The notes beneath the pieces are model-generated. The model saw only the letters and a program-made list of their open reading frames with translations, did no database searches and was not told where the DNA came from. DNA of 32,000 nt, taken from Acaryochloris marina S15 (GTDB lineage: Bacteria; Cyanobacteriota; Cyanobacteriia; Thermosynechococcales; Thermosynechococcaceae). Position numbers and translations under genes: made by a program. Location: positions 3,930,001 to 3,962,000 of the forward strand of contig NZ_CP064923.1 in assembly GCF_018336915.1 (NCBI RefSeq), given 5' to 3'. Shown in pieces: positions 2,671 to 22,257 of the stretch. Position 1 is the first letter of the stretch. Each line of letters begins with the position of its first letter.

Positions 2671-2671
2671 G

Positions 2672-3465: not shown

Positions 3466-3496
3466 TTGTTGATATGCATATCCTACATATCAACAA
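3466..3496. promoter_or_regulatory. 11-bp perfect inverted repeat in a divergent intergenic region
   Basis: TTGTTGATATG (3466-3476) and CATATCAACAA (3486-3496) are separated by a 9-nt spacer. The repeat lies between the divergent starts at 3121 (-) and 3805 (+). Confidence 0.2.
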
Positions 3497-3804
3497 TATT
3501 TCAGTGAGTAGGGCTGTTGCTATATCGAAAAATTGACCTGCTCAAGAATTCAACACATCAGAATTTATACCAGTCATCATTAAGGCAAATAAATTCTTCA
3601 GACACCAATAGAGTCGTCATTATTTCCCATCTGTTTAAATCTTTTGAACATCGAAAAAATATCGCTGTTTTGATGAGATGATAAAAAATAATACATCGAC
3701 AAACTCAAGAGTCTACGTTTCAGCCTTAATAAGAAGACGCTGTATCGCAGATCTTTGGCTTTGTACGGGTACTACTAGATAAAGAAGATCACCTCGCGAA
3801 GAAC

Positions 3805-4404: not shown

Positions 4405-6448
4405 GGCTGTCTGAAATTTGTTGTTGGAGTTCTTCCAAGGTGGTGGGAGGCTCTAGACAACTGAACCCTTGACAAACTAAGCCCATTGCACCGGGAGGAA
4501 CTTCAGAAGATTGGCTATATACAGCGGTGGGTAAATACGTGGACGCTAAGTCTGTTGCTGATGTCCGAATGGAGGTGTGATGGAAGTACCAGTCCAAGGC
4601 GACAAACAGGCTAGGGCAGGCCTGGGTTGAGGAGTCCATTACTTGGCCAAAGGTTTGCAGGGCTTGTTCAGCTTGGCTGAGATACTCGGTGCGATCGCAA
4701 ACCAAACTCAGGCGTATCAGACTTGCGATCGCAACCCCATTTGCAGCAGGCGTGGCATTATCCAACCAGCTCCGCTCTCGAATCAGCAGCTCTTCAGACA
4801 TTTCACTACCAGTATTGAAATAGCCACCCCCTTCCACAGCCCATAAATGCTGATCAAATTCAGCCTGTGTGGTTTGCGCTGCCTCTAACCACCGATTGGC
4901 TTGATCCACTGCCAGGCTTTGACAAGCCTGATGAAGATCCAGAAAAGCCTTGATCAGCAGCGCATAATCCTCTGATTGGGCGATCACGGCAATTTCGCCA
5001 TCATAATTGACGCGATGGAGCCGTCCCTCTGACCATTGCTGGTCCAAGATAAAGGTGGCGGCTTGAGTTGCCAAAGCCAGATAATCAGGCTGTTGAAACA
5101 CCGCAGCTGCTCGGGCTAATCCTGAAATCATCAAGCTATTCCAGGCCACAATCATTTTGGTATCGGTGACCGGGGGGATCCGACCGGGCCAAGGATGGGT
5201 TTTCGCCACCTGGTTATTGGTGGCAGGTGGAAAGGTCGTCAGGGATTCGGGCCGTTCTCCATACCGGACCTGAAAGAGTTTCCGCAGAGCTTCTTCCACC
5301 GGTTCGCTGATTACGCCGGGTTGCTGGCGCTGTAGTACCGTTAGTCCATCTTCAAAGTTGCCCTTAGCACTCAAGTTAAAAATATCTGCCAGGGCTGAGT
5401 ATTCTTCTGCAGTCAGCAGATGGGTCAGCTCCGAGTCAGTCCAGGTGTAAAAGCGCCCCTCCTCGGGCTCTACATCTTCCGTTGTGACAAAGTTGTCGGC
5501 ATCTTGGGCCGCATAAAAATAGCCAGCTTCTGCAGTCATTTCTCGCTTTAACCAGGCAACAGTGCCAGCAATCGCCCGCTCAAAAGCCGGTTCTTCAACG
5601 CCCGAACTCCACAAATTGGCCAAATATTCGACAATTTGACCATTATCGTAGAGCATCTTTTCAAAATGAGGCACCGTCCAATTGGGGTCTACTGTGTAGC
5701 GATGAAACCCTCCGGCCACATGGTCATAAATTCCCCCCAAGGCCAAATCCAGTCCCCGCTGGCGACAGGCTTGCTGAGCCTGCTCTTGTTCTGGGGTTTC
5801 AAAACGCGATCCGTGAAGTGCGATCGCAGCATAGGGAATCATGGGAAAACTTGGCCCAGGTGTTTGGTTAATGAGCACCGTCGTATTTTTGGCAATGCCT
5901 TGACTCAATAGCTCAGGCTGGAGGGCACCAATAGGATTGAGCACCGTTGAGCTTTGCAGATGGCCACTGAGTTTTTCCTTTTGGGCATCTAATTTTTGTT
6001 TCTCATTGTCATAAAAACTGCGAATCGCTTCAAGAACTTGCAGAAAGCCAGGGCGTCCATATTTCGGCTCTTCGGGGAAATAGGTGCCGCCATAAAAAGG
6101 CACCAAATCCCCCGGCGTTAAAAACATATTCAGAGGCCATCCTCCCTGCCCAGTCATCGCCTGGACCGCCTGCATATAGATGCTATCGATATCTGGCCTT
6201 TCTTCTCGATCCACCTTGATGGGGATATACTGCGCGTTCATATACTCGGCAATCTCAACATTTGAGAAAGCTTCTCCTTCCATCACCGTGCACCAATGGC
6301 AGCTGGAATACCCTACAGAGAGAAAAATGGGCTTATTCTCTTGAGCCGCACGTTCTAGGGCTTCTTCACACCAGGGCCACCAGTCAATGGGATTATCAGC
6401 ATGTTTGCGCAGATATAGACTAGCAGAATGGGCAAGACGATTCGGCAT
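4385..6448 (-). CDS. Thioredoxin-domain protein of the YyaL/DUF255 (COG1331) type, with a glycosyl-hydrolase/epimerase-like alpha-toroid C-terminal region
   Basis: N-terminus NPIDWWPWCEEALERAAQENKPIFLSVGYSSCHWCTVMEGEAF is the characteristic DUF255 thioredoxin-like motif (SxGYxxCHWCxVM). About 690 aa, typical for the family. The ATG at 6448 (MPNRLA..., GAGGG upstream) is preferred; the track start at 6475 is a GTG. Confidence 0.85.
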   Translation of the reverse strand: MPNRLAHSASLYLRKHADNPIDWWPWCEEALERAAQENKPIFLSVGYSSCHWCTVMEGEAFSNVEIAEYMNAQYIPIKVDREERPDIDSIYMQAVQAMTGQGGWPLNMFLTPGDLVPFYGGTYFPEEPKYGRPGFLQVLEAIRSFYDNEKQKLDAQKEKLSGHLQSSTVLNPIGALQPELLSQGIAKNTTVLINQTPGPSFPMIPYAAIALHGSRFETPEQEQAQQACRQRGLDLALGGIYDHVAGGFHRYTVDPNWTVPHFEKMLYDNGQIVEYLANLWSSGVEEPAFERAIAGTVAWLKREMTAEAGYFYAAQDADNFVTTEDVEPEEGRFYTWTDSELTHLLTAEEYSALADIFNLSAKGNFEDGLTVLQRQQPGVISEPVEEALRKLFQVRYGERPESLTTFPPATNNQVAKTHPWPGRIPPVTDTKMIVAWNSLMISGLARAAAVFQQPDYLALATQAATFILDQQWSEGRLHRVNYDGEIAVIAQSEDYALLIKAFLDLHQACQSLAVDQANRWLEAAQTTQAEFDQHLWAVEGGGYFNTGSEMSEELLIRERSWLDNATPAANGVAIASLIRLSLVCDRTEYLSQAEQALQTFGQVMDSSTQACPSLFVALDWYFHHTSIRTSATDLASTYLPTAVYSQSSEVPPGAMGLVCQGFSCLEPPTTLEELQQQISDSLTRHQV

Positions 6449-6592
6449 GAAGCCCTCAGAGGAGATTGCATTCACAGTTTATCGCTATCTTATTGAGGGA
6501 AAATTTCTTAATTCCAAAAACATTCTTAAAGTCAAATCACCCTGAACAGAAACCCAAAAAAACCCATCATTTTCAACTTTCATTTCGGGGGA

Positions 6593-7039
6593 ATGAGTAT
6601 ACTTGACCCAGGCGTGATGGCAGCGGTTATGGTTGTTTCTTCCTTTCCCCAAAACAAACAGGAAACCCTTCTGTCCAAAAAAGCGGCAATGGCTGAGTTG
6701 AAAAAGACCCATCAGCTAGATATTGCCTTTGCCCAACGCATGAGTGCCGATCAAGTTCGGGCACTTCTTTATGCCGTTAGAGAACAAGATGAGCTAGCTG
6801 ATGCGATTCGAGCCTTGATCGAACAGCGTAGCCGTTTTGCTAAAAATAACCGTAGCTATGGCCTGGTCAAATATCGCATCGAAAATGAGCGAGATTATGC
6901 CTTAAACCAGCTCAACTATGTGGAACAGCAGCTCGAAAAATATCAGCAGTATTTCAAAGAACTCCTCAAAAATTTCCTCGATTTAGAACAGAGCGAACTC
7001 CTCCGATTAGTGAGAACACTATTAGCCCAACTCGATTAG
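6593..7039 (+). CDS. Hypothetical helical/coiled-coil protein, first gene of a three-gene operon
   Basis: 148-aa ORF whose C-terminal half is heptad-like (NYVEQQLEKYQQYFKELLKNFLDLEQSELLRLVRTLL). It stops 8 nt before the next gene. The start is uncertain; internal Met codons lie at 6617, 6629 and 6689. Confidence 0.45.
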   Translation: MSILDPGVMAAVMVVSSFPQNKQETLLSKKAAMAELKKTHQLDIAFAQRMSADQVRALLYAVREQDELADAIRALIEQRSRFAKNNRSYGLVKYRIENERDYALNQLNYVEQQLEKYQQYFKELLKNFLDLEQSELLRLVRTLLAQLD

Positions 7040-7047
7040 GAGGGGAT

Positions 7048-7416
7048 ATGGCTCGGACCCACGACAATATGTCCTATCGGGACCTGCAAACCTATAACCG
7101 GACTTTGCTGACTCAACACCAGCTAAATATAGAGCGCAAACAGAAAGGGCTCTTAAACCGAGGTTGGCAACAAGTGATTGATTTATACACCTGGATTACC
7201 CAAAAGCTCCAAACGACTTCTGGCCAGGTAGAAGCCAAAATCCTGTCTAACTTTGCCCGGATGCAGCAGGCTGCAGATGCTATCAAAACAACGGTTCATC
7301 AAGTGCACCAACGCTCCCAGCATTGGCAGCGCACTGAACTGGTTAACAATATTTATGAATTCGAAGCCAAGGACAGTAGCGATGACACGGATGGAAACTT
7401 GCCTGCAACTCTTTAA
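7048..7416 (+). CDS. Hypothetical protein (122 aa), second gene of the operon
   Basis: ATG at 7048 is preceded by the strong SD AGGAGGGG (7038-7045). The product is Gln/Thr-rich and helical, with an acidic tail. It overlaps the HNH gene start. Confidence 0.5.
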   Translation: MARTHDNMSYRDLQTYNRTLLTQHQLNIERKQKGLLNRGWQQVIDLYTWITQKLQTTSGQVEAKILSNFARMQQAADAIKTTVHQVHQRSQHWQRTELVNNIYEFEAKDSSDDTDGNLPATL

Positions 7417-7831
7417 CCAAATGCAAGGGGCAAAGCTGCGGGCCCATGCGGCGGTGAACCGAGTGTATGTCCAATACCGAGAGCAGTACCAAGATTGGCG
7501 ACAAACGCCGGAAGCACGTCACCTGATCAAGCAGCAGCTCCAGAAACTGGGAGACATTTGCCCCATCTGCCAGCGAGGATTAGCGGTCACCAATAGCACC
7601 ATTGACCACCTTGAACCCAAGCGAAACCATATCAGTAAAACCTTGTGTCAAGAAAATATGCTGGTGATGTGTTGGGGGTGCAACGTCAGCAAAGGGACTC
7701 AACCTTTTGTTCGATGGCGACGGCAACTACATCCGTTTCGCCAACAGTCTCTGGATTATGCCATTATGCAAATTCATGGGGAAGCTAGACTAGCTGAATT
7801 ACTTGAACCCACTACAGTAAAGCAACATTAA
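7382..7831 (+). CDS. HNH endonuclease (zinc-finger CxxC...CxxC type)
   Basis: CPICQRGL...STIDHLEPKRN...NMLVMCWGCNVSKG gives CxxC, a DH catalytic His, Asn, and CxxCN. The likely start is ATG 7382 or 7391, overlapping the upstream gene end. The longer track ORF from 7253 is judged to be read-through of an open frame. Confidence 0.7.
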   Translation: MTRMETCLQLFNQMQGAKLRAHAAVNRVYVQYREQYQDWRQTPEARHLIKQQLQKLGDICPICQRGLAVTNSTIDHLEPKRNHISKTLCQENMLVMCWGCNVSKGTQPFVRWRRQLHPFRQQSLDYAIMQIHGEARLAELLEPTTVKQH

Positions 7832-7980
7832 ACATTCTCTCTACCAACACAAACGAAAAAACATGAATCCCTGGACTTTGGAGTGAACTTTAGGTGTCAA
7901 GGTTATGCCACTCATGCGAACAACTATTAGATTTTGCTTTAATTTCGAGTGGGTTATTCTACATGTTTCTTGCTCTCTTT

Positions 7981-8424
7981 TTAACTCTCATGGGTAATGT
8001 CAATTAGACAGCTATCATGATTTAGCACAACAGACAAAAATCTATCACTTAAATCATTCGGGAATGTGAAGTCAAATACTGAGTAGCACTCATTGCTTGG
8101 GTAGATCCCTACTCTCGTGAGAATAAGCGTACCAAGCTCTAACCTAAGTCCATAGTCCTCAATCAAGTCTTGGTGGCACTCAAAATATTCAACGACTAAC
8201 TCATTATCTTTAGCTAAGTGATTTAGATATTTCTGGGCAAGTCTTATATTCTGCGGCAGGAGACCCAAAAAGACTTTTATCTGGTGGAGTTCAACCTCAC
8301 CCAAACTTAACGCCTCAAAGTTTAAGTCCAATTCAACTGATTTTTTGTCAAATTGAATTTCTGTTTCAAGATAGTCAGGTAGGTTCTGATTATCGATTTT
8401 CCCAAAGTAAGGTATTTCAAACAT
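7981..8424 (-). CDS. Hypothetical protein, DUF2004-like (call from recalled family pattern only)
   Basis: 147-aa ORF. N-terminus PYFGKIDNQNLPDYLETEIQFDKKSVELDLNFE and C-terminus LIDITHES resemble the DUF2004 pattern I recall (FG.ID...LeeYYe.ei....k.i.lDLNFe ... ITWES). The gene and its flanks are clearly more AT-rich than the neighbours. Confidence 0.45.
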   Translation of the reverse strand: MFEIPYFGKIDNQNLPDYLETEIQFDKKSVELDLNFEALSLGEVELHQIKVFLGLLPQNIRLAQKYLNHLAKDNELVVEYFECHQDLIEDYGLRLELGTLILTRVGIYPSNECYSVFDFTFPNDLSDRFLSVVLNHDSCLIDITHES

Positions 8425-8603
8425 AGTTATCCAAGCAACCTGTCAATATAAATGTGATAAGGGGTTAAAAACCTAATGGGATAAAACAGGTTCATACAAT
8501 GTTTGACTAGCCGTGTATCCCTATACTCCCTTTACTGGTCCGTATAATGCTGATACACATCAGATTGCAAACGCTACATTAAGGATAAAACGGGAAGAAA
8601 ATC

Positions 8604-9062
8604 ATGAAAATTTGGGTTGATGCCGATGCCTGCCCGAATGTGATCAAAGAAATTCTGTATCGAGCGGTCAAGCGGGTCAAAATCCACCTAACTTTGGTTG
8701 CGAATCAATATATCAATCCGCCTGCATCCGATTACATCAATGCTGTTCAAGTCCCAGCCGGCTTTGATGGCGCTGATAACCATATTGTTGAGCAGATGCA
8801 GGAAGGGGATCTAGTCATCACGGCTGACATTCCCCTTGCCGCTGCTGTAATCGAAAAATTGGGCCATGCCCTAAACCCCCGAGGTGAACTGTATACGCAA
8901 AACAATATGCGGGAACGGCTTGCCATGCGCAACTTTATGGAAGAGATGCGAGAAGGTGGATTGGTCACTGGAGGGCCACCCGCATTAAATCAACGGGATC
9001 GGCAACTGTTTGCCAATCAGCTCGATCGATTTTTAGCCAAGCACCATCAGCCTTCTGACTGA
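8604..9062 (+). CDS. yaiI: YaiI/YqxD family protein (UPF0178, DUF188)
   Basis: [21 protein letters not shown]...[13 protein letters not shown]...LNPRGE...R...MR.FM is almost colinear with E. coli YaiI as I remember it. 152 aa, as expected. Confidence 0.9.
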
Positions 9063-9667
9063 GACTTAACCGCCACAATCACCACCCAAGATTGCTGATC
9101 TTTGGGTAGTCCCGGTGGTCGGTAGTAGTGATCCGTTATGGTGAATCCTGCTGCTTGCACCAAAGGAGCGAGGGTTTCATATTCCCAATAGGATACAAAC
9201 CGCTGACCCGAAGGGCGATTGACAAAGCCCTCTTGATTGCCTCGTGCCATGGATAGAACGATCACCCCTTCCTCTACCAAGGACTGCCATAAGTTTTGGA
9301 GTACCGACTCCATTGATGTTTGGGGAACATGCAACAGAGACGCATTGGCAAAAACCCCATCAAAGTAGCACTCAGGCAAATCTAGATCCAGAAAAGTTTG
9401 CTGCCATACTTCGCAGCCCGTTTGTTGAGCCATTTCCACAAAAGCAGGAGTAGCATCTAGACCGATAACCTCATGTCCTTCAGCCTTAAATGCCACAAGA
9501 TCGCGACCCGGTCCACACCCTAAATCTAAGATGCGACCTGGATTACGGGGCATCCATTGCATTAACACCTGTCGATTTTGGGAGACATCATGGTCCCAAG
9601 TTCCTTCTCGGAAGCTGTTGGCAGTGGCCTGATATTCAGCAATAGTGATATTTTCGTGGGATTCCAC
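9047..9667 (-). CDS. Class I SAM-dependent methyltransferase
   Basis: Motif [12 protein letters not shown], post-I acidic VIGLD, and motif [21 protein letters not shown] start at 9667, 5 nt after the upstream hydrolase stop, which suggests an operon. There is a 16-nt convergent overlap with yaiI. Confidence 0.8.
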
Positions 9668-9672
9668 TCGTT

Positions 9673-10545
9673 TTAACCCATCAGAAAGGTGCGCATATAT
9701 TGGTTGACCAGCTCCGGCTGCTCTTGTTGGATCCAGTGGCTACACTGACTGAGATAGTGCAGTTCTAAATTACGAACATGGTCTTTAGTGCCATAAGTAA
9801 GTTCCTTACCCAAGGCAAAGTCATCTTCCCCCCATAGCAGCAGAGTGGGAACGTCCAAGATTCCCCAATCTTTGGGCTGCAGGAGCATATCGAGGTTACT
9901 GCGATAGTAGTTAATCATGGCGGTGAGGGCACCCCGCTTGGCAGCCGCGTCTTTGTAGGCTTCTAGATCTTCAGGGCTAAACGCACTTTTGTTAGTTGCT
10001 CGTTCTGAAAACATGGATGCGATCGCACGGTAGTCATTGGCTTGAAACATCAGTTCCGGCAGCATCGGCACTTGGAAAAAGCCGATATACCAGCTTCGCA
10101 TCATCTGTTGGGGATTACTTCGTAGCGCTTCCTGGAACTTGGCAGGATGGGGCAAGTTCATAATGATCAGTTTTTGCAGCATCTCTGGGTGGGCATAGGC
10201 GAATTGCCATGCGATCGCACCGCCCCAATCATGGGCCACCAAGATGCACTGGTCATACCCCAGCCCTTGAATAACCCCTTTCACATCCTTAATCAGCTCT
10301 ACCATGCGATAGGCACTGACATCTTGAGGTTTATCGCTATCGTTATACCCTCGCATATCTAAGGCCACGACCTTATAATCTTGGGCAAACACCGGAATTT
10401 GATGGTGCCAAGAATACCAAAATTCAGGAAAGCCATGCAGCATCAACATTAATGGCCCTTCGCCCTGGGTCACATAGTGTAGCCGCACCTGATTCGTGGT
10501 GATGTATTGATGCTGAAAAGCAGATTCTAGCTCGTTGTCAGCCAT
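9673..10545 (-). CDS. Alpha/beta hydrolase, epoxide-hydrolase/haloalkane-dehalogenase-like subfamily
   Basis: HGFPEFWYSWHHQIP (oxyanion HGxP), Asp-nucleophile elbow VAHDWGG, and C-terminal catalytic His context SQCSHWIQQEQPE. 290 aa. Confidence 0.85.
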   Translation of the reverse strand: MADNELESAFQHQYITTNQVRLHYVTQGEGPLMLMLHGFPEFWYSWHHQIPVFAQDYKVVALDMRGYNDSDKPQDVSAYRMVELIKDVKGVIQGLGYDQCILVAHDWGGAIAWQFAYAHPEMLQKLIIMNLPHPAKFQEALRSNPQQMMRSWYIGFFQVPMLPELMFQANDYRAIASMFSERATNKSAFSPEDLEAYKDAAAKRGALTAMINYYRSNLDMLLQPKDWGILDVPTLLLWGEDDFALGKELTYGTKDHVRNLELHYLSQCSHWIQQEQPELVNQYMRTFLMG

Positions 10546-10751
10546 AGCTTTAAGAAGATTCAGCTTATCTAGGGGTATCGTATTGCTTACAGACCAGTAT
10601 TGCGATTATGGGGTATCTTTCCATAAATTCAAAGTCCCATGCTGATACCTATTCACTTCTGTCCTAACCCCCATCTGGATGGATAATTATGACTATCATA
10701 AGAGGGGGAGATGCATCACCCCATGGATAAACACGTAAATTTCACCCAGGA

Positions 10752-11051
10752 ATGGATCAAGGCAAAGCACCCATCACGGTCTTCTTATCTTTAATCTTAG
10801 GGGTACTTGCTTACTTCCTCTGGAGTAAGACATCAATAGGCCACCATATTGTCTTTAAGCAATCTGAGATCCTACGGGGCGACATTGCCAAAATCTCAGT
10901 TGTGCCCAATACATTTACGAATTTACGAATTTATTTATTTGCCTATAGCATCAAGCAGACCTTTTTTTGGGTGAAATTGCTCGGGCCATTTGTGGCTGCG
11001 GCAGGATTAATGATCCTGGCTGCAACCGCTCTATTTTCTCCAGAAGAATAA
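10752..11051 (+). CDS. Small membrane protein, hypothetical (99 aa)
   Basis: Two clear hydrophobic helices (ITVFLSLILGVLAYFLW; LLGPFVAAAGLMILAATALF). No family recognised. Confidence 0.4.
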   Translation: MDQGKAPITVFLSLILGVLAYFLWSKTSIGHHIVFKQSEILRGDIAKISVVPNTFTNLRIYLFAYSIKQTFFWVKLLGPFVAAAGLMILAATALFSPEE

Positions 11052-11139
11052 GTTAGCATCTGCACATGATCGTCGCCCTTATCTAAACAAGGGTAGGTCA
11101 TATGCCATCACTCCCCTCGCAATTTCCCCATCCTTTACC

Positions 11140-11835
11140 ATGATTGAGCTATATTATTGGCCCACCCCCAATGGGCATAAGATAACCCTATTCCTAGAGG
11201 AAGCCGGGCTGGAATACGAGATTAAGCCCATCAACATTGGCAGGGGGGATCAATTTCAGCCAGAGTTCCTCAAAATCTCTCCCAATAATCGGATTCCTGC
11301 CATTATTGACCTGGACCCGGCCGATGGCGGTGGACCTATTTCAGTCTTTGAATCTGGCGCTATCTTGTTGTACTTAGCAGCCAAAACCGGGCAATTTCTG
11401 CCACAAGACATACGGCAACACAATATCGTCCAGGAGTGGCTGTTTTGGCAAGTGGGGGGATTAGGGCCAATGGCCGGACAAAACCATCACTTTTCCCAAT
11501 ATGCGCCAGAGAAACTTCCCTATGCCATTACCCGATATGTGAATGAAACGAATCGGTTATATGGCGTTTTGAATCAGCATCTCCAAGGCAAAGACTTTAT
11601 TGCAGGTGACTACTCCATTGCCGATATGGCTTGTTATCCATGGGTTGTACCCTACAAATGGCAAGGCCAACAGTTAGATGACTTTCCCGAGATTGATCGG
11701 TGGTTTCAGCTCATTGAAAATAGACCTGCCACCGTCACCGCCTATGAGAAAGGCAAGCAGGTCAGCCAATCAACCAAATTGACCGATAAAAAGAGAAAAG
11801 TCTTATTTGGCCAAACAGCGAAGACTCAACCGTGA
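11140..11835 (+). CDS. yfcG: Glutathione S-transferase, Nu-class YfcG-like (GSH-dependent disulfide reductase type)
   Basis: MIELYYWPTPNGHKITLFLEEAGLEYEIKPINIGRGDQFQPEFLKISPNNRIPAIID...FESGAILLYLA.KTG...WLFWQVGGLGPM.GQNHHF is colinear with E. coli YfcG as I recall it. Confidence 0.85.
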   Translation: MIELYYWPTPNGHKITLFLEEAGLEYEIKPINIGRGDQFQPEFLKISPNNRIPAIIDLDPADGGGPISVFESGAILLYLAAKTGQFLPQDIRQHNIVQEWLFWQVGGLGPMAGQNHHFSQYAPEKLPYAITRYVNETNRLYGVLNQHLQGKDFIAGDYSIADMACYPWVVPYKWQGQQLDDFPEIDRWFQLIENRPATVTAYEKGKQVSQSTKLTDKKRKVLFGQTAKTQP

Positions 11836-11884
11836 GGTGATGGAGACAATGTAGTGATTTGGGTTAGGTATACAGACAAAACAA

Positions 11885-11915
11885 ATCTCCTTCACCTATT
11901 ACAGGCGAAGGAGAT
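11885..11915 (-). terminator. Candidate intrinsic terminator for the minus-strand kinase-peptide unit
   Basis: 9-bp perfect stem ATCTCCTTC (11885-11893) / GAAGGAGAT (11907-11915). Read on the minus strand, the hairpin is followed by TTGTTTTGTCTG. The 13-nt loop is long. Confidence 0.3.
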
Positions 11916-11983
11916 AAATAGAGTTATTCAAAGTCTTAATCGCTTTTCACTGGAAATAAGCACTATTTCAGAAGGCAAAAGCA

Positions 11984-12002
11984 TCTAGCAAAACATTTGC
12001 TA
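11984..12002 (-). terminator. Alternative weak hairpin just downstream of the small peptide ORF
   Basis: CTAGCAAA (11984-11991) / TTTGCTAG (11995-12002) form an 8-bp stem with a 3-nt loop. On the minus strand it is followed by ATGCTTTTGCCTT. The stem is AT-rich. Confidence 0.2.
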
Positions 12003-12046
12003 GGCAAGGGTATGAAGCTCATAACCCAGAAGGACAATAACGAGGC

Positions 12047-12199
12047 TTAGTTTAGACCGCCTAGACTAGCCAATAGATCATAAGCTTGATCAGGAAGTGC
12101 GAAGGGACCCATCTTCTGCAAGTCATTCATACTGACTTGGGTTAATTCTTCAATCGCTCCATGAATTTCTAATTTAGGGGAAGTCCAAGCTTTTTTCAT
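12047..12199 (-). CDS. Small ORF (50 aa) with a lasso-RiPP-type leader motif; putative precursor peptide
   Basis: Hand translation of the minus strand gives MKKAWTSPKLEIHGAIEELTQVSMNDLQKMGPFALPDQAYDLLASLGGLN, with stop TAA at 12049-12047. W5xxP8xL10x3G14x5T20x matches the lasso leader consensus YxxPxLx3Gx5Tx. GGAG lies 14 nt upstream. The ORF starts 29 nt after the HprK-like gene stop. It is below the size cutoff of the supplied ORF track. Confidence 0.55.
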   Translation of the reverse strand: MKKAWTSPKLEIHGAIEELTQVSMNDLQKMGPFALPDQAYDLLASLGGLN

Positions 12200-12228
12200 G
12201 CTAATTTCACTTACTCCGCGATGGAACT

Positions 12229-13155
12229 CTATTTTACCACTTCATACTCTAGCGAATATTTCTCAGAATGGGTACTCCTGATATGGTCTTTTAATAATTC
12301 AGATGATTGAGAGAGCTGGTTTAAGTCTCGTGGGCGCTGCAGTCTATATAGATTTACACGCTTTGCCAATTGAGCAGCTTGCTTGAAATGGTGACGGTCA
12401 CGAACCGATAACACAGACTTTAAACCGGAAAATCTCAGCAATTCAATAATGGCTTGCTGCTGGGGAACGGGTTCTATGGACCAGTCTGATCCATATTCCA
12501 AGATGTATAAATTTTGGAGGTCATAGGCTTCGGATGGGCTAGCTGTCGAAAATGCAAATGCAGATTCTTCAGCAGTCGGTGTTGAGGGGATCAACTGCAG
12601 CTGAGCGGCGGCAGCGGCAGATAACTTCATTCTGGGAACACCAGAATAGAGTGAGGCATTATCGGTATTGATGTGAATAGCCGTTAAATCATCCGTTATA
12701 CCGATAAATCCCTGATTGACAGATGCGGCCAAAGCCGAAGATTTACCCGCACCTGAATCTCCCAGAAAGGCAATGGCGATGTTGTGGATGGTGACGGCAC
12801 TCGCATGCAAAATATAAAGTCCTCGTTGATACAGAAGAACGGCCAGCACGACTCCCAGCAATGCCTGACAGATCGGTTCCTGTTCTGCATTTTGGGCAGA
12901 AACCAGTACGATCTTGCACCCCCCTTGAACGATAAAAACGCCGATATCTCGCACGTATACTAAGGCGTCCGTTGGGTCAACTTGGAGAGCAATGGGCTGT
13001 TGGGCAACGGCTTGGGGGATAAAGTCATGGATACAGCCATCCGTTACCCACTGGATAGTGACGTCTGGATGCTGCCCTGTAGGGGATAAATCTGGCAAGT
13101 CTGGAATACAAAAGGTTGATTGAAAAATCAACCCATAGAGCTGATAAAAGTGCAT
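12229..13155 (-). CDS. HPr kinase/phosphorylase C-terminal-domain-like P-loop serine kinase (HprK-related, RiPP-associated type)
   Basis: LHASAVTIHNIAIAFLGDSGAGKSSALAA is the HprK-type P-loop (GxSGxGKS) preceded by the LHA.a motif. At 308 aa it has no HprK N-terminal domain signature and no ptsH nearby. A lasso-type leader peptide ORF is adjacent. Confidence 0.7.
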   Translation of the reverse strand: MHFYQLYGLIFQSTFCIPDLPDLSPTGQHPDVTIQWVTDGCIHDFIPQAVAQQPIALQVDPTDALVYVRDIGVFIVQGGCKIVLVSAQNAEQEPICQALLGVVLAVLLYQRGLYILHASAVTIHNIAIAFLGDSGAGKSSALAASVNQGFIGITDDLTAIHINTDNASLYSGVPRMKLSAAAAAQLQLIPSTPTAEESAFAFSTASPSEAYDLQNLYILEYGSDWSIEPVPQQQAIIELLRFSGLKSVLSVRDRHHFKQAAQLAKRVNLYRLQRPRDLNQLSQSSELLKDHIRSTHSEKYSLEYEVVK

Positions 13156-13371
13156 ATCAAGAGACGGGGCACACAGGGGCAGAGGCTCTCAGACTTGAAG
13201 AAAGTTGAGAGTAGCAGGGCGATTCGCTGACATTGAGCCGGAACATGTCAGCAATGGGTTGGGAGATGGAGCAATACTCAACTCCAAATAATAATCTAGC
13301 TTGCGTCGGGAAATAGGGTTGAAAAAACACCTTTCTGGGCATGCTCAAGAATAATGGACCTTGTGGGGAAA

Positions 13372-16300
13372 ATGGATCTTTCTGACATGCGCCTGACTCC
13401 AAGTGCTCGTTTGAGCGGATATACTCCCCTTGAGATGCTGCACGAGGGACAGAAGACGCAGGTCTATCGGGCCCTACGGACCATTGATCAACAGTCTGTT
13501 GTCATCAAAACCACGCCTCCTCAAGTGGTCTTAAGATTTTCTGATCACCTCGCCTTTCGTAATCAATTCGCCATTAGTCACAACCTGGATCATCCTGGGA
13601 TTATCACAACATTTGGCCTAGAGTCTTACGACCAGACCTATGCCCTGGTGATGGAAGATATACAGGGAATTCCACTTTCACAATTCTTACAGGTTTCTGT
13701 TGCTCTCAAAGATGGGTTAAGGGTTGCCCTGCAATTGGCCGAGATTCTGCATTACCTCGGTCAACAGCGGGTTTTACACAAGGATATCAAGCCTGCCAAT
13801 ATTCTGATACATCCCCAAACGCTGCAGGTTAAACTCATTGACTTTGGGATTGCTTCCCTCTTACCCAAAGAGACTCAAGAGATCAAAAACCCCAATACCC
13901 TAGAAGGCACCTTAGCCTATATGGCCCCAGAACAAACGGGGCGAATGAACCGGGGGATTGATTTTAGAAGTGACTTTTATGGCTTAGGCATCACCCTGTT
14001 TGAACTATTTTCGGGACAACTGCCCTTTCAAGCAGATGAACCGATGGCTTGGCTACATTGCCATATTGCTCAGGTGCCCCCTTCTCTAGGGGAGTTTGGG
14101 GTGCCAGAGGCTGTGGCGAATATCGTGGCTAAGCTCCTCGCTAAAAATGCGGAAGATCGCTATCAGAGTGCTTTGGGATTGAAGCATGATTTGGAACAGT
14201 GTTTGACGCAGTTGACGGAGCAGGGAAGGATTGAACGGTTTGAGTTGGGTAAAAGGGATGTATGCAATCGCTTCTTGATACCCGAAAAAATCTATGGACG
14301 GGAAGCGGAAGTTCAGAGCTTGCTAGATGCCTTTGAACGGGTAGCTGAGGGGAGTTCAGAGTTATTGTTGGTAGCGGGTTTCTCTGGCATTGGCAAAACG
14401 GCGGTGGTCAATGAAGTCCATAAGCCCATTACCCAGAAAAATGGCTATTTCATCAAGGGCAAGTTTGATCAATTCAATCGAAATATTCCCTTTTCTGCGT
14501 TTGTGCAAGCCTTCCGTAGCCTGATGAGGCAACTCTTAGGGGAATCGGATGCTCAATTATCGAGTTGGCAGGCCAAAATTCTAGCGGCCGTGGGTGAAAG
14601 TGGCCAGGTTCTAATTGAGGTGATTCCTGAGTTAGAACGCATTATGGGGGAGCAGCCTGCCGTACCAGAATTGTCTGGAACCGCAAACCAGAATCGCTTT
14701 AATCTCCTCTTTAGCAAGTTTATTCAGGTTTTTGCAAAACCAGCGCATCCTTTGGTCATCTTCTTGGATGACTTGCAGTGGGCAGACTCAACCTCCTTTA
14801 CCCTTCTCAAACGGTTGATGGCAGAGTCGGAGATAGGCCATTTACTGATAGTCGGTGCCTACCGAGACAATGAAGTTTATCCAGCCCATCCACTGATATT
14901 GACACTCGATGAACTGGACAAACAAAATATTGTTCTCCATACCCTTACCCTACAGTCATTGCACCTTGGCCATATCAATCAATGGGTCGCGGATGCTTTA
15001 TTATGCACCCCAAACATTGCATTTCCCCTCACCCAATTGATCTATCAAAGAACCCAGGGAAATCCTTTTTTTACAACCCAATTTTTGCAGAGACTCCATG
15101 GTGATGGACAGATCATCTTTGATTGTGATGCTGCCTATTGGCAGTGTGATTTGACGCAATTGCAGCAACTAGCCCTTACCAACGATGTAGTGGAATTCAT
15201 GGTCGGACGGTTGCAACAGTTGCCCGAGGAGACTCAGGACGTATTAAAAATTTCGGCTTGCATGGGAAATCAGTTTGACTTGGCAACCCTAGCTACCGTG
15301 TGTAAGAAATCTCAGGAGGATATCGCCAAGGCTTTATGGCCATCGTTGCAGCTCGGCTTGGTGCTCCCAGAAAGTCAAACCTATAAGTTCATGGATGGGA
15401 ACCACCGCATCCTGGAAATGGAACGAGATATCACGATTGATTATCGATTTGTTCACGATCGGGTCCAACAAGCTGCATATCTGTTAATTTCACCTCAAGA
15501 GATCCATAAAATCCATTTAAAGATTGGCCGTTTGTTATTGGCACAACTATCAGATAGTCAAAGAGATGAAAAAATATTCGACATTGTTAACCACCTCAAT
15601 CTTGGAGCTGAGTTGGTCAAGCAACCAGATGAACGTTATCAATTGGCAATACTTAATTTAGAAGCTACCCATAAAGCCTTAGCATCAACAGCTTATGATG
15701 CTGCTTTTGAATATTCAAAAATAGGCAGAGAATTTCTATCTAAAACAGCTTGGGATACCCACTATCAATTGAGTTTAGATTTTTGCGATCTGGGTGCAAA
15801 ATCTGCTTTTCTGTCTGGCAATCTTGATACAGCAGAATCTATTTCTAGATTAGTAGAGAAGCATGCTGACTCTATAGTCGACTGTGCTAATTCCTATGAA
15901 ATCAGAACACAGATATATCAGAGTCAGAACCAACCTCAACGCGCATTTGATATTTCAAAAAACTTCTTGAATGCAGTGGGGATAGAGTTTTCAAATATAG
16001 CTGATGAAAAAATCATAGAAAATGCAATTCACTCCGTCAATCACATCCGGGCTGGGCGGTCTATAGAAGATTTAGTGAATCTAAGGGTGATAGATGACCC
16101 ATCTCAAGAGATCGCTCTAAGAACTTTAGGAAAAATGTCGGTTACCTGCTTTCAGGTAAACCCAGAACTGTTCCCTATAGTGGTTGCTAAAAGCGTTTAT
16201 TTATCTCTTAAGTATGGCAATACAGAGGCTTCCTCAATTGCATATAGTTTATATGCAATGATTATGCTTTCTGTGATAGATGATATTGAGGCAGCCTCTG

Positions 16301-19300
16301 ATTATGGTCATCTGGCAATGGCCCTAATCAGCAAGCTTGATGCCAAGTCATTTGAAGCCAAGGTTATTAATGTTTTTGCGTACATTATCAAACCCTTAAA
16401 ATCACATACTAGAGACTCTTTGCCGGACTTAATGCGAGGTTTTCAATGCGGTATAGAGGTAGGAGATTTTGAGTTTTCCGCTTATTGCATTGCCGGATAC
16501 TGCTTATTTTCCTATCTAGTTAGCCAAGACTTGAACGCTCTCAATATAGAACTCAAAAAATATAGTCATGAATTAGAGCGAGTCCAGCAATCTACTGGTC
16601 AATATTGGATCAATATGGTTCAGCAGTCAGTACTCAACCTCATCGGTAGGAGTCAAGATCCGACTGTACTTTGTGGAAGTGCCTATGATGAATCGATCAG
16701 TTTACCCATTCATCATCAAAATAATGACGCTGAAACGTTGCGCTTCTTCTATTTCCATAAGATTGTTCTGAACTATTGGTTTGGTGAATATCAACAAGCA
16801 ATTCAATATTTAACCGAGATTGAACCATATATTGTCTCTAAGCAGGGGACTCCAACGGTTTGTCTCCTGCTGATGTATGATTCTCTAGCCCATTTAGGCG
16901 GGGATAAATCCATACAGGACCAAGATTCTGTTTTAAAGCGGGTGAATCATAATCAGACCAAGCTGCAGAAATGGGCCACTTCAGCGCCGATGAATTATCA
17001 GCATCGTTGGGACTTAGTCGCGGCAGAGAAATACCGTTATGAAGGCCAAAAATTAGAAGCGCTTGAGAAATATGAACAAGCAATTCTCGGAGCGAAGGAA
17101 CATGAATATCTGCAAGAAGAAGCGCTTGCTAATGAGCTAGCCGCTAAGTTTTATCTGGAGTGGGGCAAGGAAAAAATAGCCTCAACTTATATGCAAGCGG
17201 CCTATCACTGTTATGCCCGATGGGGCGCTCAAGCAAAAACGGATGATCTTGAACGACGCTACCCCGAATTAATCCAACCCATCCTGCAGCAAACACCTCG
17301 CTCTTCCCACCCACTGGACACCCTTGCAAAACTTGGCGCACCCAACCTATCCATTCACTCTTCTACTTCAGCCTACTCAACCCAGACCAACCTCAATGCG
17401 ACGTTTGATTTTGCTGCAATTCTCCAAGGTGCCCAAGCCCTTTCAGAAAGTCTACACCTGGATGAATTGCTAGAAAAACTCGCCCCAATGATGCTGCAAA
17501 ACTCAGGTGCAGATCGATTGGTGCTCTTACTCCCCGAAGCTGATGACACTTGGCTTATCAGAGCTACTGCGACGCCTAAAACGATACAACTGTCCTCAGT
17601 TCCCCTTGGTGAGTATCCGGATCTACCCCTGCAACTGATTCAGTTCGTTAAAAATACTCAAGAAGCTCTGGTTGTCGATAATTTAGAAACCGATTTACCC
17701 ATTATTGACAACTATCTGGGAACCCACCAACCCCGGAGTATTCTATGTTTACCGATTTTGCATCAAGGCCATTTGACGGGTCTACTGTACTTGCAGAATC
17801 AATTGGCGTCGGGGGTATTTACATGCGATCGCATCACCGTCCTCAACTTTCTCTGTGCCCAAGCAGGCATCGCGATTGAAAATGCTCGTCTGTATGAGCT
17901 AGAGAAGGATAGAACCACACATTTGGCTGTCTCGGAACGACGTCTTCAAACCTTATTTGACCAAACCGCAGATGCAGTCTTTTTATTGGGCGAACAAGGA
18001 TTTATTGACTGTAACCAGGCTGCCCTTAACCTCCTCGGATATGCCAGTAAGTCTAAAGTATTAGCGCTTCATCCTCATCAGATTTCTCCTGAGCGGCAGC
18101 CTGATGGTCAGCTTTCTGCAGATAAAATGGCACGGTTAAATCAAGAGGCCTTACGAGGAGGAGGTTTAAGGTTTGAATGGCTCACTCGGCATAGTAATGG
18201 AGAAAACTTTTGGGTAGAAATTACCCTCACCCCCATCCAATATCAATCAGAGATGATTCTCCATAGTGTGGTTCGAGATATTAGCGAACGTAAGCAGCTA
18301 GAACAAGAACAGGTCCGCCTCATAGCCGTTCTTGAAGCAACCCCTGATTTTATTGGCATTTCTAATGCTAAAGGGGAGGACGTGTGGTGTAACCAGCAGT
18401 TGGCCAATCTTCGACCAGATCTAGCTGAGCCAAGTCAACGATGTATTTCCAACTTTCATCCGCACTGGGTGAATGACTTAGTAGTGAAGGAAGTACTTCC
18501 TACAGCCATTCAGAAGGGGAGTTGGTCTGGAGAGCTAGCCGCCTTAGATGCTGAGGGGAATGAGATACCGGTTTCACAAGTTGTGATTGCCCATAAAGCC
18601 GCAGATGGAACCGTTGAGAACTTTTCAACGATCATGCGAGATATTAGCGATCATAAACAAGCCGATGAAAACTCCCGCCTGCTTGCATCCGTTGTTGAGT
18701 CGTCAAATGACGCGATTCTGACGAAGAGCTTAGATGGCATAATCACGAGCTGGAATCAAGCTGCCACAAATTTATTCGGGTATTCGGAAGCTGAGGCACT
18801 GGGACAATCTATCTTAATGCTGTTTCCACCAGATCGACTCCAGGAAGAACCCCACATTATTGCTCGTCTTCAGAATAAAGAGTGTATCGAGAACTTTGAA
18901 ACCGTTCGCCTCCACAAAGAGGGTTATCCGATTGATCTTTCAGTCACCATCTCCCCTTTAGTGAATAGGCAGGGTGAGGTCGTTGGGGCGTCCAAAATTG
19001 TCAGAGATATTCGCGATCGCAAAATAGCTGAGGATGCCCTGCGACAAAGCGAAACTAAATTTCGTAATCTGCTCTCAAATCTTGATGGCGTGGTCTATCG
19101 CTGCCAAAACGATGCGAATTGGACCATGGAGTTTATGAGCGATGCCATTACAGTCTTGTCTGGCTATCCCGCTTCGGACTTTATCAATAATCTCAACCGC
19201 ACCTATGTCAGCATTATCCATCCCGATGATGTGGAGCAGGTTAATCAGACCATTAACAAGGAGCTGACTGCACATCACCCCTTTTCAATGGAGTATCGTG

Positions 19301-22257
19301 TCCTCCATCGAGACGGCTCAGTTCGTTGGGTGACTGAGAAGGGAAAGGGGATTTTTAATGCTGAACACCAACTCCAATACGTAGAAGGTGTCATTGTCGA
19401 TATCACCGATCGCAAATGGACAGAACTTGCCCTTCAACTCAGCGAAGCCCGCTCCAATGCAGCCTTTCAGCAAGCTGCCATTGGCATTGCTGAAAGTGAT
19501 GTGCAAGACGGCATCATTACTCGGGCAAATGGTTATTTCTGCGAGATGGTGGGTTATTCTCCAGACGAACTCAGAACGATGACTGCCGCCGATTTGACCC
19601 ACCCGGATGATGTAGAAGAATCTGGCAGACTGATGCAGTTGCTTGACGGTGGCAAAGTCAGTCATTTCACTACCGAAAAGCGATATGTTTGCAAAAATCG
19701 TAGGGTTGTCTGGTCATCTACCACAGTAACCCTCGTGCAGATGCCGGATGGGAATTCCCAATATCTAGCGATGATTCGAAATATTAGCGATCGCAAAGTC
19801 GCAGAACTCGCCCTAAAAGACAGTCAAGCTCAATTTCGACGCATGACTGAGAATATACCGGGGATGATTTATCGCTATGTTTTGCATCCTGATGGTCAGA
19901 ATAAGCTGACGTATATCAGTTCCCAGGTCAGAGAAATATATGAAGTGGAACCAGAAGCGGCACTCCAAGATGCCAGCAAGCTTTGGGAAAGAGTCCATCC
20001 CGATGACCTTCCCCTAGTCAAGGCTGAGGCCCAAATATCTGCTGAAACCTTGCAATCGACCCCGGTCGAATGCCGCCTTCTATTGCCCCACAAAGGGCTG
20101 CGCTGGATTCAATTGATTGCTCGAATAGAACAATTAGATAATGGCGATATCGTTTGGGATGGCGTTGCCCTAGATATCAGCGATCGCAAAGCTGCTGAAG
20201 CTAATCTACGCTTTAGTGAAAAACGATTTCGGCGAGCCATTGAAGGTGCCCCTTTCCCCATCATGCTCCATGCCGAAGATGGTGAAGTTCTTCAAATCAA
20301 TGCGACTTGGACCGAGTTGACGGGTTACAGCCATGCCGACATTCCTACCACTCAAGATTGGGCACAGTATGCCTATGGGGAAGATGCTGCCAGAGTAATC
20401 AAAGAGGTGATGGCCAAAAAGTATACCCTCACCTCTCGCTGGGAAGAAGGTGAATTTACCATTCGAACCCAGGATGGTGACCCACGTCTCTGGCAGTTTA
20501 GCTCCGCTCCCTTAGGAGTTTTACCCGATGGTCGTCGAACGGTGATTTCTATGGCCGTGGATGTCACCCAACGGCGACAGGCTGAAGACAATCTTGAACA
20601 GGCCAATCAGCAGCTAGCAGAATACTCCCACACCCTAGAGCAAAAAGTTGAGGAACGAACCCAGGCGTTCCAAATTGCGAAGGAACAAGCGGATAGTGCC
20701 AACCTGGCGAAAAGTGAATTTCTGGCCAATATGAGCCATGAACTCCGTACACCCCTGAATGGCATTCTGGGTTACGCCCAAATTCTCAATCGTTCTACCA
20801 CCCTGAATGCCAAGGAGCACCACGGCATTACCGTCATCCACCAATGTGGCTCACATTTACTCAGCCTTATAAACGACATCTTAGATCTGGCCAAAATCGA
20901 AGCTCGAAAACTGGAACTTGCACCCGCTGAAACCTATTTGCCTGCTGTGCTTCAAAGTGTTGTTGAAATATGCAAGATCAAAGCCCAGCAAAAAGGCATC
21001 GCTTTTGTCTATGAACCCAGTCATGACCTACCGGGAGGGGTGAGTGTCGATGAAAAATGTCTGCGGCAAGTGTTGATCAATTTATTAGGCAATGCCATCA
21101 AATTTACGGATCATGGAGCGGTTACCCTACAAGTCGAAGTTTTGAGCACCACTGAAACGGAGGCTTCACTATTATTTCAGGTGATGGATACGGGAATTGG
21201 CATTGCTGAGACTGATCTCTCCAAACTCTTTGATGCTTTTGAACAAGTTGGATCTCGCGATCGGCGGGCGGAAGGCACCGGTTTGGGACTTGCCATCAGT
21301 CAACGCCTTGTCCAGCTTATGGGTCACAGCATTCAGGTTAAAAGCCAAGTGGGAATAGGGAGCGAGTTCTCCTTTATGATTAACCTCCCTCTGATCGAGA
21401 ATGGGGTCCGATATCAGTCCATTTTTAACAACCAGGATCGCATTATCGGCTACCAAGGTGAGCGCAAGCGGATTCTCCTTGTGGATGATCATGAAGACAA
21501 TGTCGTCATACTTTGCAACCTCCTGGAACCCCTCGGGTTTAAGGTCGATATCGCTCATGATGACTTAGAGGCTCTAGATAAACTCAGCAATCACCCCGAC
21601 TTGGTGTTAACGGATATATCCATGCCAGTGATGGATAGTTTTAAGCTATTACGGCATATTCGGGATGATGCAGATCTCCAAACCCTCAAGTTCATCGTTT
21701 CCTCAGCCTCCGTCGATCCGGTCTACCAACAGCAAGCATTAGACGTGGGCAGCGATGCATTTCTAGCTAAACCCATTGATGCCCAAGCCTTGTTTCAAAT
21801 CTTTTCTGAACAGCTCAATTTAGACTGGATTTATGAAGTGCTAACCCCCTCACCTGAGCAAAGGGAGGTTGCTTCGCCAGAAATGATATCTGAAGCAACC
21901 CAGACTATCAGATACGCTTCGACCATTGCTCAACAGAGTCTGATCAATGGTCAGCTAGAATTGCCGAGGGTTGATGGAGGGAGGCCGTCTCTAGACGTAC
22001 ACAACTACTCAGTCAAGGGAAAAAAACAGCCTTTAAAAGTGGTTTATCCACCCAAGGATACCTTAGAGAAACTAGTAGATATGGCAAATAAAGGTAGTAT
22101 ATTTGAGATCAAAGATGAACTGTTAGCGATTCATCTTACCCATCCAGAATGTCAATCCTTTTGCCAGGAAATCTTGCATTGGTCAGACCGCTTTGAACTG
22201 AATAAAATTCAAGCCTTTTTACAAGATGCTTACGAAAATCATCGGAATAACAGATAG
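13372..22257 (+). CDS. Giant HstK-type multi-kinase sensor 1: Ser/Thr-kinase-like domain, STAND/AAA ATPase, helical repeat region, GAF, 7 PAS, HisKA-HATPase_c, REC and a C-terminal helical tail
   Basis: Uninterrupted ORF of about 8.9 kb.
- Kinase motifs: [12 protein letters not shown] (from 13777), DFG, APE.
- ATPase: P-loop GFSGIGKT (14377-14400), Walker [11 protein letters not shown].
- GAF at about 17400-17900.
- Seven PAS/PAC units at about 17930-20590, each ending DI[STR][DE][RH]K.
- H-box MSHELRTP (His codon 20737-20739); N/G boxes [22 protein letters not shown].
- REC with Asp codon 21613-21615 (LVLTDISMP).
The start at 13372 is chosen because [17 protein letters not shown] aligns with the N-terminus of paralogue 3; an alternative ATG lies at 13354. 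Confidence 0.9.

Follow-up and report, generated by a model that had tools for sequence, protein, structure and literature searches.

In a 32,000-nucleotide stretch of Acaryochloris marina S15 (contig NZ_CP064923.1, positions 3,930,001 to 3,962,000; the whole stretch is called the window below), the minus strand carries a gene for an HprK-like P-loop kinase and, directly 3' of it, a gene for a small peptide with a lasso-type leader. Judged by sequence kinship, this pair is descended from two genes, for kinase and precursor, of a phosphorylated-lasso cluster of cyanobacteria in which the leader was of the Trp type (WxxP). We give an even chance to the proposal that the pair makes a linear phosphorylated peptide with helpers from a complete lasso cluster elsewhere in the genome.

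The kinase is one of the HprK-like enzymes by which lasso precursors are tailored, and this placement is firm, because the neighbourhoods of its homologues, a profile match to HprK and the AlphaFold fold agree. A total of 119 homologues were retrieved, and the neighbourhoods compared comprise 80 loci from species-level genomes and several from assemblies. Apart from the kinase of the window and its orthologues, which form a long-branched clade of their own (the 'orphan' clade), most homologues adjoin a PqqD-type recognition element (RRE) for RiPPs, the ribosomally synthesised and post-translationally modified peptides, together with a B2 protease and an Asn-synthase-like cyclase, and usually also have an ABC exporter and an NTP_transf_5 protein nearby. 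Such cluster-bound homologues occur in Nostoc, Calothrix, Symploca, Moorena, Chroococcidiopsidaceae, Chloroflexota and Acidobacteriota, as well as in Paenibacillus, Methanobacterium and haloarchaea, and most of the loci from cyanobacteria, Chloroflexota and archaea have a small open reading frame (ORF) with a leader next to the kinase gene. This genomic context is the decisive evidence for the family assignment. The P-loop reads FLGDSGAGKSS, and four residues invariant in the family alignment (A1), H117, K138, D155 and D156, correspond to the His-Lys-Asp-Asp motif that is essential in lasso-tailoring kinases by mutagenesis (review PMC9266682). The lasso-tailoring kinship proposed in the initial annotation of this DNA is thus borne out by the P-loop, the catalytic residues and the homologues' neighbourhoods. 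By identity (35–38% over the full length), the nearest relatives of the orphan kinases are the kinases of cyanobacterial clusters with Trp-type leaders.

The kinase-family profile matches the HprK structure 1jb1 at E 1e-6 over ~50 residues round the P-loop, and the AlphaFold model (pLDDT 86, pTM 0.84) finds phosphoenolpyruvate carboxykinase (PEPCK) at E 2e-7 and HprK/P (1kkl) at E 3e-5 in Foldseek. Some records of the A. marina orthologue are named PEP carboxykinase, a stray name explained by the resemblance of the fold to PEPCK; such source names and the similarity of the fold to both enzymes would fit a PEPCK, or a true HPr kinase/phosphorylase that acts in carbon-catabolite signalling. We consider both identities ruled out, with practically no probability left to them. 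The likeness to HprK models is confined to those ~50 residues and falls far under the curated cut-offs: the search of such models that the initial annotation had suggested gave matches, but at 20.1 bits for PF07475 (Hpr_kinase_C; cut-off 33.3) and at ~18.2 and 20 bits for TIGR04352/TIGR04355 (cut-off 200). In addition, most retrieved homologues sit in lasso clusters, Pfam scans reveal no resemblance to a pts operon anywhere in the window, and the kinase has 308 aa as opposed to 504–588 residues in the matched PEPCK chains.

The peptide, MKKAWTSPKLEIHGAIEELTQVSMNDLQKMGPFALPDQAYDLLASLGGLN, consists of a W-type lasso leader (residues 1–21, MKKAWTSPKLEIHGAIEELTQ) and a conserved core (residues 22–50, VSMNDLQKMGPFALPDQAYDLLASLGGLN). 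W5, P8, L10, G14, T20 and Q21 are present as initially described, in agreement with the motif [Y/W]xxPxL...G.....T-x, and the NCBIfam model NF033528 ('lasso_cyano') matches residues 1–23, i.e., the leader only, at E 1.6e-6. A leader match by HMM was therefore obtained, but its 28 bits remain under the 33-bit cut-off of the model. Five cluster-encoded cyanobacterial precursors score 26.6–39 bits on the same model, four of the five under the cut-off (26.6–32.7), and the orthologous peptide of the one other cyanobacterium that has the pair (L005) reaches 34.7 bits. Because cluster-encoded precursors score in the same range, the similarity of the leader reflects homology and not chance.

The core is non-canonical, as also stated in the initial annotation, which placed G31 and D37 correctly too. 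Canonical W-type precursors have an invariant LT[QE] followed by a core with Asp at positions 7–10, and end in Ser or Ser+1, whereas the orphan peptides have an invariant LTQ (Thr-x) junction followed by a core (VSMNDLQKM...) with acidic residues at positions 4–5 only, and none of 11 orthologues (0/11) has Asp or Glu at 7–9. Since the invariant LTQ precedes a core without Asp or Glu at 7–9, the product most likely stays linear. Within the core, G31, an acidic residue at 37 (Asp or Glu) and the sequence DLLAS at 41–45, including D41 and S45, are invariant, and the tail after DLLAS is variable (GGLN, GGLTS, TI, GI, EGL). Ser45 is the sole invariant hydroxyl residue (Ser/Thr) of the core; the C-terminus of the peptide is ...DLLASLGGLN and not Ser, Ser45 lying 3–6 residues from the end among orthologues. 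Modelled by itself in AlphaFold2 (AF2), the peptide has a low confidence (pLDDT 63) and shows helical tendencies only. In a separate locus, the precursor at L010 9623–9760, which lies beside a complete set of PqqD (B1), B2 and cyclase (C) genes and a kinase gene, has a predicted core ESPVPGFRPPRMGSGYS without Asp or Glu at 7–9; non-canonical cores therefore occur inside complete clusters too.

Both genes are conserved well beyond the window, in which the two minus-strand ORFs and the gap between them had been placed correctly and translated identically in the initial annotation. The kinase is 83% identical to its orthologue in A. marina MBIC11017, where the locus is syntenic, and the kinase-then-peptide pair is found in at least 10 Acaryochloris/Acaryochloridaceae lineages and in one other cyanobacterium (L005/L006). 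A peptide orthologue lies directly 3' of every orphan-clade kinase with downstream sequence available, 23–65 nt from the kinase gene, and the surroundings of the pair are of at least three kinds (GST and giant kinases; DNA ligase; AMP-binding enzyme). Across lineages the identity of the kinase falls to 49% and 39%, while the peptide is still ~60–98% identical. Codon alignments of the window with MBIC11017 (L003) give pN 0.025, pS 0.25 and dN/dS 0.08 for the peptide and dN/dS 0.14 for the kinase, those with L014 give dN/dS 0.05 and 0.11, respectively, and synonymous sites are saturated in more distant pairs. These ratios indicate that both genes are under strong purifying selection, leader and core of the peptide being both constrained. 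No frameshifts or stop codons were seen in the small ORF, which is intact in every lineage. The small ORF is thus a real gene, given its conservation in at least 10 lineages and its dN/dS of 0.05–0.08, and the synteny and purifying selection proposed as a check both hold in related Acaryochloris. A protein search with the 50-aa peptide recovered eight close relatives, none of them named, and a metagenome scan with the orphan-clade kinase alignment recovered two loci and nothing new.

A pair of this kind might also be a decaying remnant of a lasso cluster, or the small ORF might be spurious, with no present function, and the loss of neighbouring B, C and D genes and the family-model scores under cut-off could be read in that way. 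This is very improbable, and a chance ORF or decaying remnant is ruled out by the selection on both genes, strong enough to leave synonymous sites saturated, and by the intact ORFs in all lineages; invariant catalytic residues, conserved spacing and a terminator-like hairpin also speak against it.

The two genes likely form one co-transcribed operon, because a promoter scan of the 29-nt spacer found nothing promoter-like between them. The spacer contains a GGAG ~14–17 nt 5' of the peptide ATG, and the hairpin, ~130 nt 3' of the peptide stop codon, is likely the end of the two-gene operon; a promoter scan of the divergent intergenic region 5' of the kinase gene found no consensus sigma-70 site. 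Within the window the unit is isolated, as had been claimed: searches by phmmer, by tblastn (with cyanobacterial and Acaryochloris reference proteins as queries) and against Pfam found no PqqD, no transglutaminase-like B2, no Asn-synthase-like cyclase, no 2-oxoglutarate (2OG) or JmjC oxygenase, no lasso-type ABC exporter, no NTP_transf_5 and no HpsJ in the 32 kb.

The description of the pair as an orphan holds for this 32-kb neighbourhood but not necessarily for the genome as a whole, since two Acaryochloris assemblies carry a complete lasso cluster on another contig. A profile of cyanobacterial lasso PqqDs (A2) gave 1319 matches, of which the best 120 were examined; among the matches listed are lasso-type PqqDs named Acaryochloris, whose neighbourhoods are complete clusters, and at least 13 distinct Acaryochloris-type PqqDs can be distinguished (80–98% mutually identical). 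Assembly JAAUOM01 has the orphan pair on contig 12 (L018) and a complete cluster on contig 2 (L093), and assembly JANQOY01 has the pair on contig 82 (L015) and the cluster on contig 80 (L095). In addition, kinase P0022 and PqqD P0134 belong to protein clusters (at 90% identity) that both bear the source name Acaryochloris sp. RU_4_1, suggesting a third strain with both. Three strains that have the lasso cluster share a run series with the window-like strain SRR12447962, which is no proof for the window strain, and similar clusters are present in further Acaryochloris-type contigs. Since two assemblies hold the pair and a complete cluster on different contigs, maturation in trans, one of the two options of the initial annotation, is feasible in the genus.

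This resident cluster comprises PqqD, B2, a 2OG-Fe(II) oxygenase or a kinase-JmjC pair, the cyclase, a precursor (A) of 43–46 aa, a second HprK-like kinase (K2) and the ABC exporter (D), directly followed by a glycosyltransferase (GT) and a Wzz/BY-kinase-like gene. It occurs in two layouts, B1-B2-2OG oxygenase-C-A-K-D and B1-B2-(2OG)-K-JmjC-C-A-D, where K stands for the kinase. Its kinase is 30% identical to the orphan kinase and belongs to a different (Y-type) clade, and its precursors have Tyr-type leaders (KTYHRPQL), e.g., MDKKTYHRPQLTNHGNVETITLQGGIVNSD. As an observation apart, the layout with K-JmjC (L096 10001–18279, L099 3946–11270) has a different precursor family from that of L093, L095 and L098, ...VTDVPIGTAPNPDIDDVTS, with a Ser end. 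No B protease, cyclase or exporter was found within up to ±10 kb of the Acaryochloridaceae copies of the pair, where sequence reaches, and tblastn of the Acaryochloris cyclase against PLSDB plasmids gave only matches below 60% identity, in a database that perhaps does not include the A. marina plasmids. A literature search on an A. marina lasso cluster found nothing usable.

The presence of such clusters raises the alternative that the peptide is a true lasso, an extra precursor of the resident cluster. A 30-residue leader would be removed by B1/B2, the cyclase would join Gly31 to Asp/Glu37 in a 7-membered ring with a 13-residue tail, and the dedicated kinase would phosphorylate the tail. G31 and the acidic residue at 37 are indeed invariant in every orthologue, even in the distant peptide of L005; two assemblies have complete B1/B2/C/D clusters besides the pair; and several precursors can be served by one lasso biosynthetic gene cluster. 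However, position -2 would be Lys, Arg or Gln instead of Thr, with the invariant LTQ junction lying nine residues upstream; residue 37 is Asp in some orthologues and Glu in others, an unusual variation at a ring acceptor; the L005 pair has B1 and D but no B2, C or remnants of them; and the resident cluster's own precursors carry leaders of the Tyr type. We consider a lasso of this kind decidedly unlikely. The G31...D37 ring put forward in the initial annotation thus survives weakly, through its two invariant residues, against the residues at -2 and the invariant canonical LTQ.

The locus of the other cyanobacterium (L005/L006) physically ties the pair to an RRE and an exporter. There, the genes for kinase and peptide are followed by those for a membrane protein of the HpsJ family, PqqD (B1), the ABC exporter (D), GT and Wzz, in this order; B1, D and GT are 60–71% and Wzz 53% identical to the Acaryochloris cluster proteins, which stand in the same order. 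B2, the oxygenase, the cyclase, a Y-type precursor and K2 are absent from L005/L006, with no remnants and only ~70 nt between the PqqD and ABC genes. Because the pair has B1 and D there without them, this argues that B2 and the cyclase are dispensable for the pair, at least locally. Literature on HpsJ yielded unrelated papers only.

This architecture also bears on the possibility of a self-contained intracellular pair of kinase and substrate or regulator, in which the peptide would be phosphorylated, or simply bound, by the kinase as a small protein with a regulatory task, without being cleaved or exported, and the leader would be a docking element only. In favour of it, the two genes travel together between three unrelated neighbourhoods in Acaryochloridaceae, exporter and protease are missing within up to ±10 kb of these copies where sequence reaches, and the whole peptide is conserved including its core, unlike the hypervariable cores typical of RiPPs. 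Nevertheless, in the only outgroup architecture an RRE and an exporter of the lasso type are immediate neighbours of the pair, the retained invariant Thr-x junction suggests a continuing importance of processing, and a peptide without a confident AF2 fold by itself gives this option little help, so that we regard it as unlikely.

In the preferred reading, that of a linear phosphorylated peptide, the kinase would recognise its own peptide via the retained lasso-type leader, probably with a PqqD-type RRE, and would phosphorylate it; the candidate acceptor is the Ser45 of the invariant DLLAS, and more than one phosphate may be added, as happens in related systems. The functions of RRE binding, export and leader removal, if any, would most likely be provided in trans by the B1-B2-oxygenase-C-A-K2-D cluster near GT-Wzz, which perhaps also supplies B2 for cleavage after Gln21. 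The unusual conservation of the core suggests that it binds a fixed molecular partner, e.g., in a function connected with the cell surface or exopolysaccharide, and is not what one would expect of an antimicrobial in an arms race. The system would then be a cyanobacterial counterpart, arisen independently, of the linear polyphosphorylated peptides (LPPs) of Bacillota described below.

Several points weigh against this proposal. Phosphorylation, the Ser45 site and the linearity of the product are all three inferred. Ser45 lies 3–6 residues from the C-terminus, as opposed to the C-terminal Ser used by known lasso kinases. The leaders of the resident cluster are of the Tyr type (KTYHRPQL) and that of the orphan peptide is of the Trp type; because the Y/W difference blocks cross-recognition in Bacillota, use of the resident B1 in trans is not assured. 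The exact 7-residue spacing from G31 to the acidic residue 37 is invariant and fits a non-canonical ring. Finally, the complete cluster is known from congener assemblies, not from the window genome or MBIC11017, and the L005 genome is known within ±10 kb only.

A bolder proposal, which is possible but which we hold as tentative and rather improbable, is that the pair represents a distinct and undescribed cyanobacterial class: a core-conserved, leader-bearing phosphopeptide with a dedicated kinase but no cyclase or dedicated protease, independent of LPPs and acting as a conserved signal or structural factor of the envelope or exopolysaccharide, and not as an antimicrobial. In its strongest form, the kinase alone may recognise the leader, and two genes may suffice.

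Table 1. Features of the kinase-peptide locus and adjoining genes; positions are those of the window.
Feature	Position	Strand	Basis or remark
122-aa ORF	7048-7416	+	overlapped by the HNH ORF
ORF with HNH-endonuclease domain	7253-7831	+	
GST gene	11140-11835	+	
Terminator-like hairpin: 14-bp stem, 3-nt loop, then TTGTTTTGTC (T-rich)	11885..11915	-	
Precursor-like peptide, 50 aa	12047..12199	-	ORF, NF033528 leader match, orthologues
Spacer from kinase stop to peptide start, 29 nt	12200..12228	-	sequence, promoter scan
HprK-like P-loop kinase, 308 aa, 'orphan' clade	12229..13155	-	ORF, homologues, fold model
Divergent intergenic region, from kinase start to giant sensor kinase gene	13156..13353	.	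presumed operon promoter
Giant Ser/Thr-kinase/AAA_16/sensor protein, 2967 aa	13354-22257	+	divergent from kinase-peptide operon
Giant Ser/Thr-kinase/AAA_16/sensor protein, 2690 aa	22409-30481	+	tandem paralogue of the 13354-22257 product

Both giant proteins next to the pair begin with an N-terminal Ser/Thr protein-kinase domain followed by AAA_16, and their GAF/PAS repeats and histidine-kinase/receiver end are read from synteny with A. marina. More distant genes of the window encode, by Pfam, a methyltransferase, an alpha/beta hydrolase, a DUF188 protein, a DsbH-like thioredoxin protein, a DUF4347 protein and a solute symporter. An ORF with an HNH-endonuclease domain overlaps the preceding ORF (Table 1); it is also found at the syntenic spot in A. 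marina MBIC11017 and is absent from two other A. marina-like records, a distribution that suggests a small mobile insertion.

Polysaccharide genes repeatedly adjoin kinase-containing lasso clusters and the L005 pair: GT-Wzz lies directly after the ABC gene in L093, L096, L098 and L099, and glycosyltransferases, Wzz/BY-kinase-like proteins, Wzy, polysaccharide synthase and sulfotransferases are encoded at L005 14525–20951 and at L010 1–3300 and 10984–17931. The retrieved loci show some further architectures. In Moorena (L021, L025, L029, L034, L027; e.g., L021 3795–5805 and 9863–10918), clusters have up to five tandem Tyr-type precursor genes, and a lone second HprK-like kinase, the closest relative of the L005 kinase, lies 3' of the ABC gene, has a variable N-terminal insertion and is followed by an exonuclease III-like gene; the idea of an orphan-like peptide beside it was dropped, there being no leader-bearing ORF at that place. 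In L042 (Rivularia sp. UHCC 0363) and L043 (Plectonema cf. radiosum), two lasso sub-clusters stand back to back at ~400–12500, the first with a Tyr-type-leader precursor, kinase and ABC exporter, the second with PqqD, B2, cyclase, a Trp-type-leader precursor, kinase and NTP_transf_5. A haloarchaeal lasso/kinase locus (L054, Natronococcus sp. A-GB7, 8531–9976) has three precursor genes, one of which encodes a core with a run of ~21 glycines (MRDDYEPPRLTTFGNVEEITKRGGGG...GPIGYGQ).

If confirmed, the proposed system would mean that cyclase-free phosphopeptide systems have branched off lasso machinery at least twice, in Bacillota and also in cyanobacteria, and are thus a recurrent evolutionary outcome that is not peculiar to a single phylum. 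With two genes, the Acaryochloris pair is the smallest version encountered; its unusually conserved core and one candidate phosphosite make it tractable for testing how HprK-like RiPP kinases recognise leaders and whether they need an RRE, and the co-occurrence of a W-type orphan precursor with a Y-type cluster in one genome offers a natural case for the cross-talk rules of Bacillota. The recurrent adjacency of polysaccharide genes adds weight to an envelope or biofilm role, itself speculative. Genome mining centred on B and C genes misses such pairs, and interest would be greater still if the two genes were self-sufficient or the peptide a conserved signal.

Among the closest known systems are the LPPs of Bacillota (LppA/K/B/S/D/N; Popov et al., Nat Commun 2026, PMC13381572), and their publication overtakes the supposition of the initial annotation that kinase systems guided by a leader and free of a cyclase were new to the literature. 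In an LPP system, the precursor carries a lasso-like [Y/W]xxP leader and an HprK-like kinase polyphosphorylates an internal Ser; a discrete RRE, a SipW-like peptidase for the leader, an exporter and an NTP-transferase complete the set, and a cyclase is absent; the loci are embedded in capsular-polysaccharide loci, often beside W-type paeninodin clusters, and are reported to be restricted to Bacillota (PMC13381572). The Y/W identity of the leader sets RRE selectivity in Bacillota, although one actinobacterial RRE is promiscuous (PMC13381572). The Acaryochloris pair shares with LPPs an HprK-like kinase and a [Y/W]xxP-leader precursor in the absence of a cyclase, an internal Ser (the candidate Ser45), descent from phosphorylated-lasso machinery and an association with polysaccharide loci, seen in cyanobacteria for L005 and for the Acaryochloris helper cluster; this adjacency matches the capsule-locus association of LPP and paeninodin clusters in Bacilli. 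On the other hand, the pair has no RRE, MsbA-like exporter, SipW-like peptidase (LppS) or NTP-transferase (LppN) in cis, L005/L006 have only the RRE and the exporter, the leader (MKKxWTxPxL..HG..E.LTQ) differs from the LPP consensus (YxxPxVLxHQxIxFETxxS), the core of 29 aa is highly conserved where that of LPPs is variable, and the host is a cyanobacterium. As to the peptidase, no Pfam match to Peptidase_S26 was found among window ORFs of at least 99 aa, and no direct search with the LppS sequence was made. Since the closest relatives of the orphan kinase are cyanobacterial lasso kinases, its ancestry indicates that the pair probably arose independently of LPPs. The combination of a W-type orphan with a Y-type lasso cluster near polysaccharide genes is a mirror image of the arrangement in Bacillota, and the paired sub-clusters of L042/L043 are a cyanobacterial parallel to the Y/W co-localisation seen there.

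With the paeninodin-type kinases (PadeK, ThcoK, SyanK, PsmK) the orphan system has in common the His-Lys-Asp-Asp motif, an HprK-like fold, the W-type leader and, presumably, action on a linear leader-bearing precursor. Those kinases lie inside B1/B2/C/D clusters and target the C-terminal Ser, as known lasso kinases do (PMC9266682), of a peptide that is then cyclised, whereas the orphan pair has no adjacent B, C or D, no ring acceptor at 7–9 and a candidate Ser 3–6 residues from the end. Closest of all by kinase identity (35–38%) are the cyanobacterial W-type clusters (L009, L020, L022, L032; Chroococcidiopsidaceae and others), whose precursors of 47–53 aa have nearly identical leaders (MKKTWNTPEL..YG..ELTQ). 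They differ in having A before K inside a PqqD-B2-C-A-K-ABC-NTP5 cluster, as opposed to K before A in the orphan pair, and in their cores, with Asp at 7–10 and a Ser or Ser+1 end. The resident Acaryochloris cluster (L093, L095, L096, L098, L099) is of the same genus, and in two assemblies of the same genome, combines an HprK-like kinase with a lasso precursor and is the likely source of RRE, protease and exporter, but its kinase is only 30% identical and of the Y-type clade, its precursors have Tyr-type leaders and the canonical Asp at 7–10, and it includes a 2OG-Fe(II) or JmjC oxygenase. Taken against these systems, the kinase-peptide pair of Acaryochloris looks like a minimal, dispersed cyanobacterial offshoot of phosphorylated-lasso/LPP-type systems.

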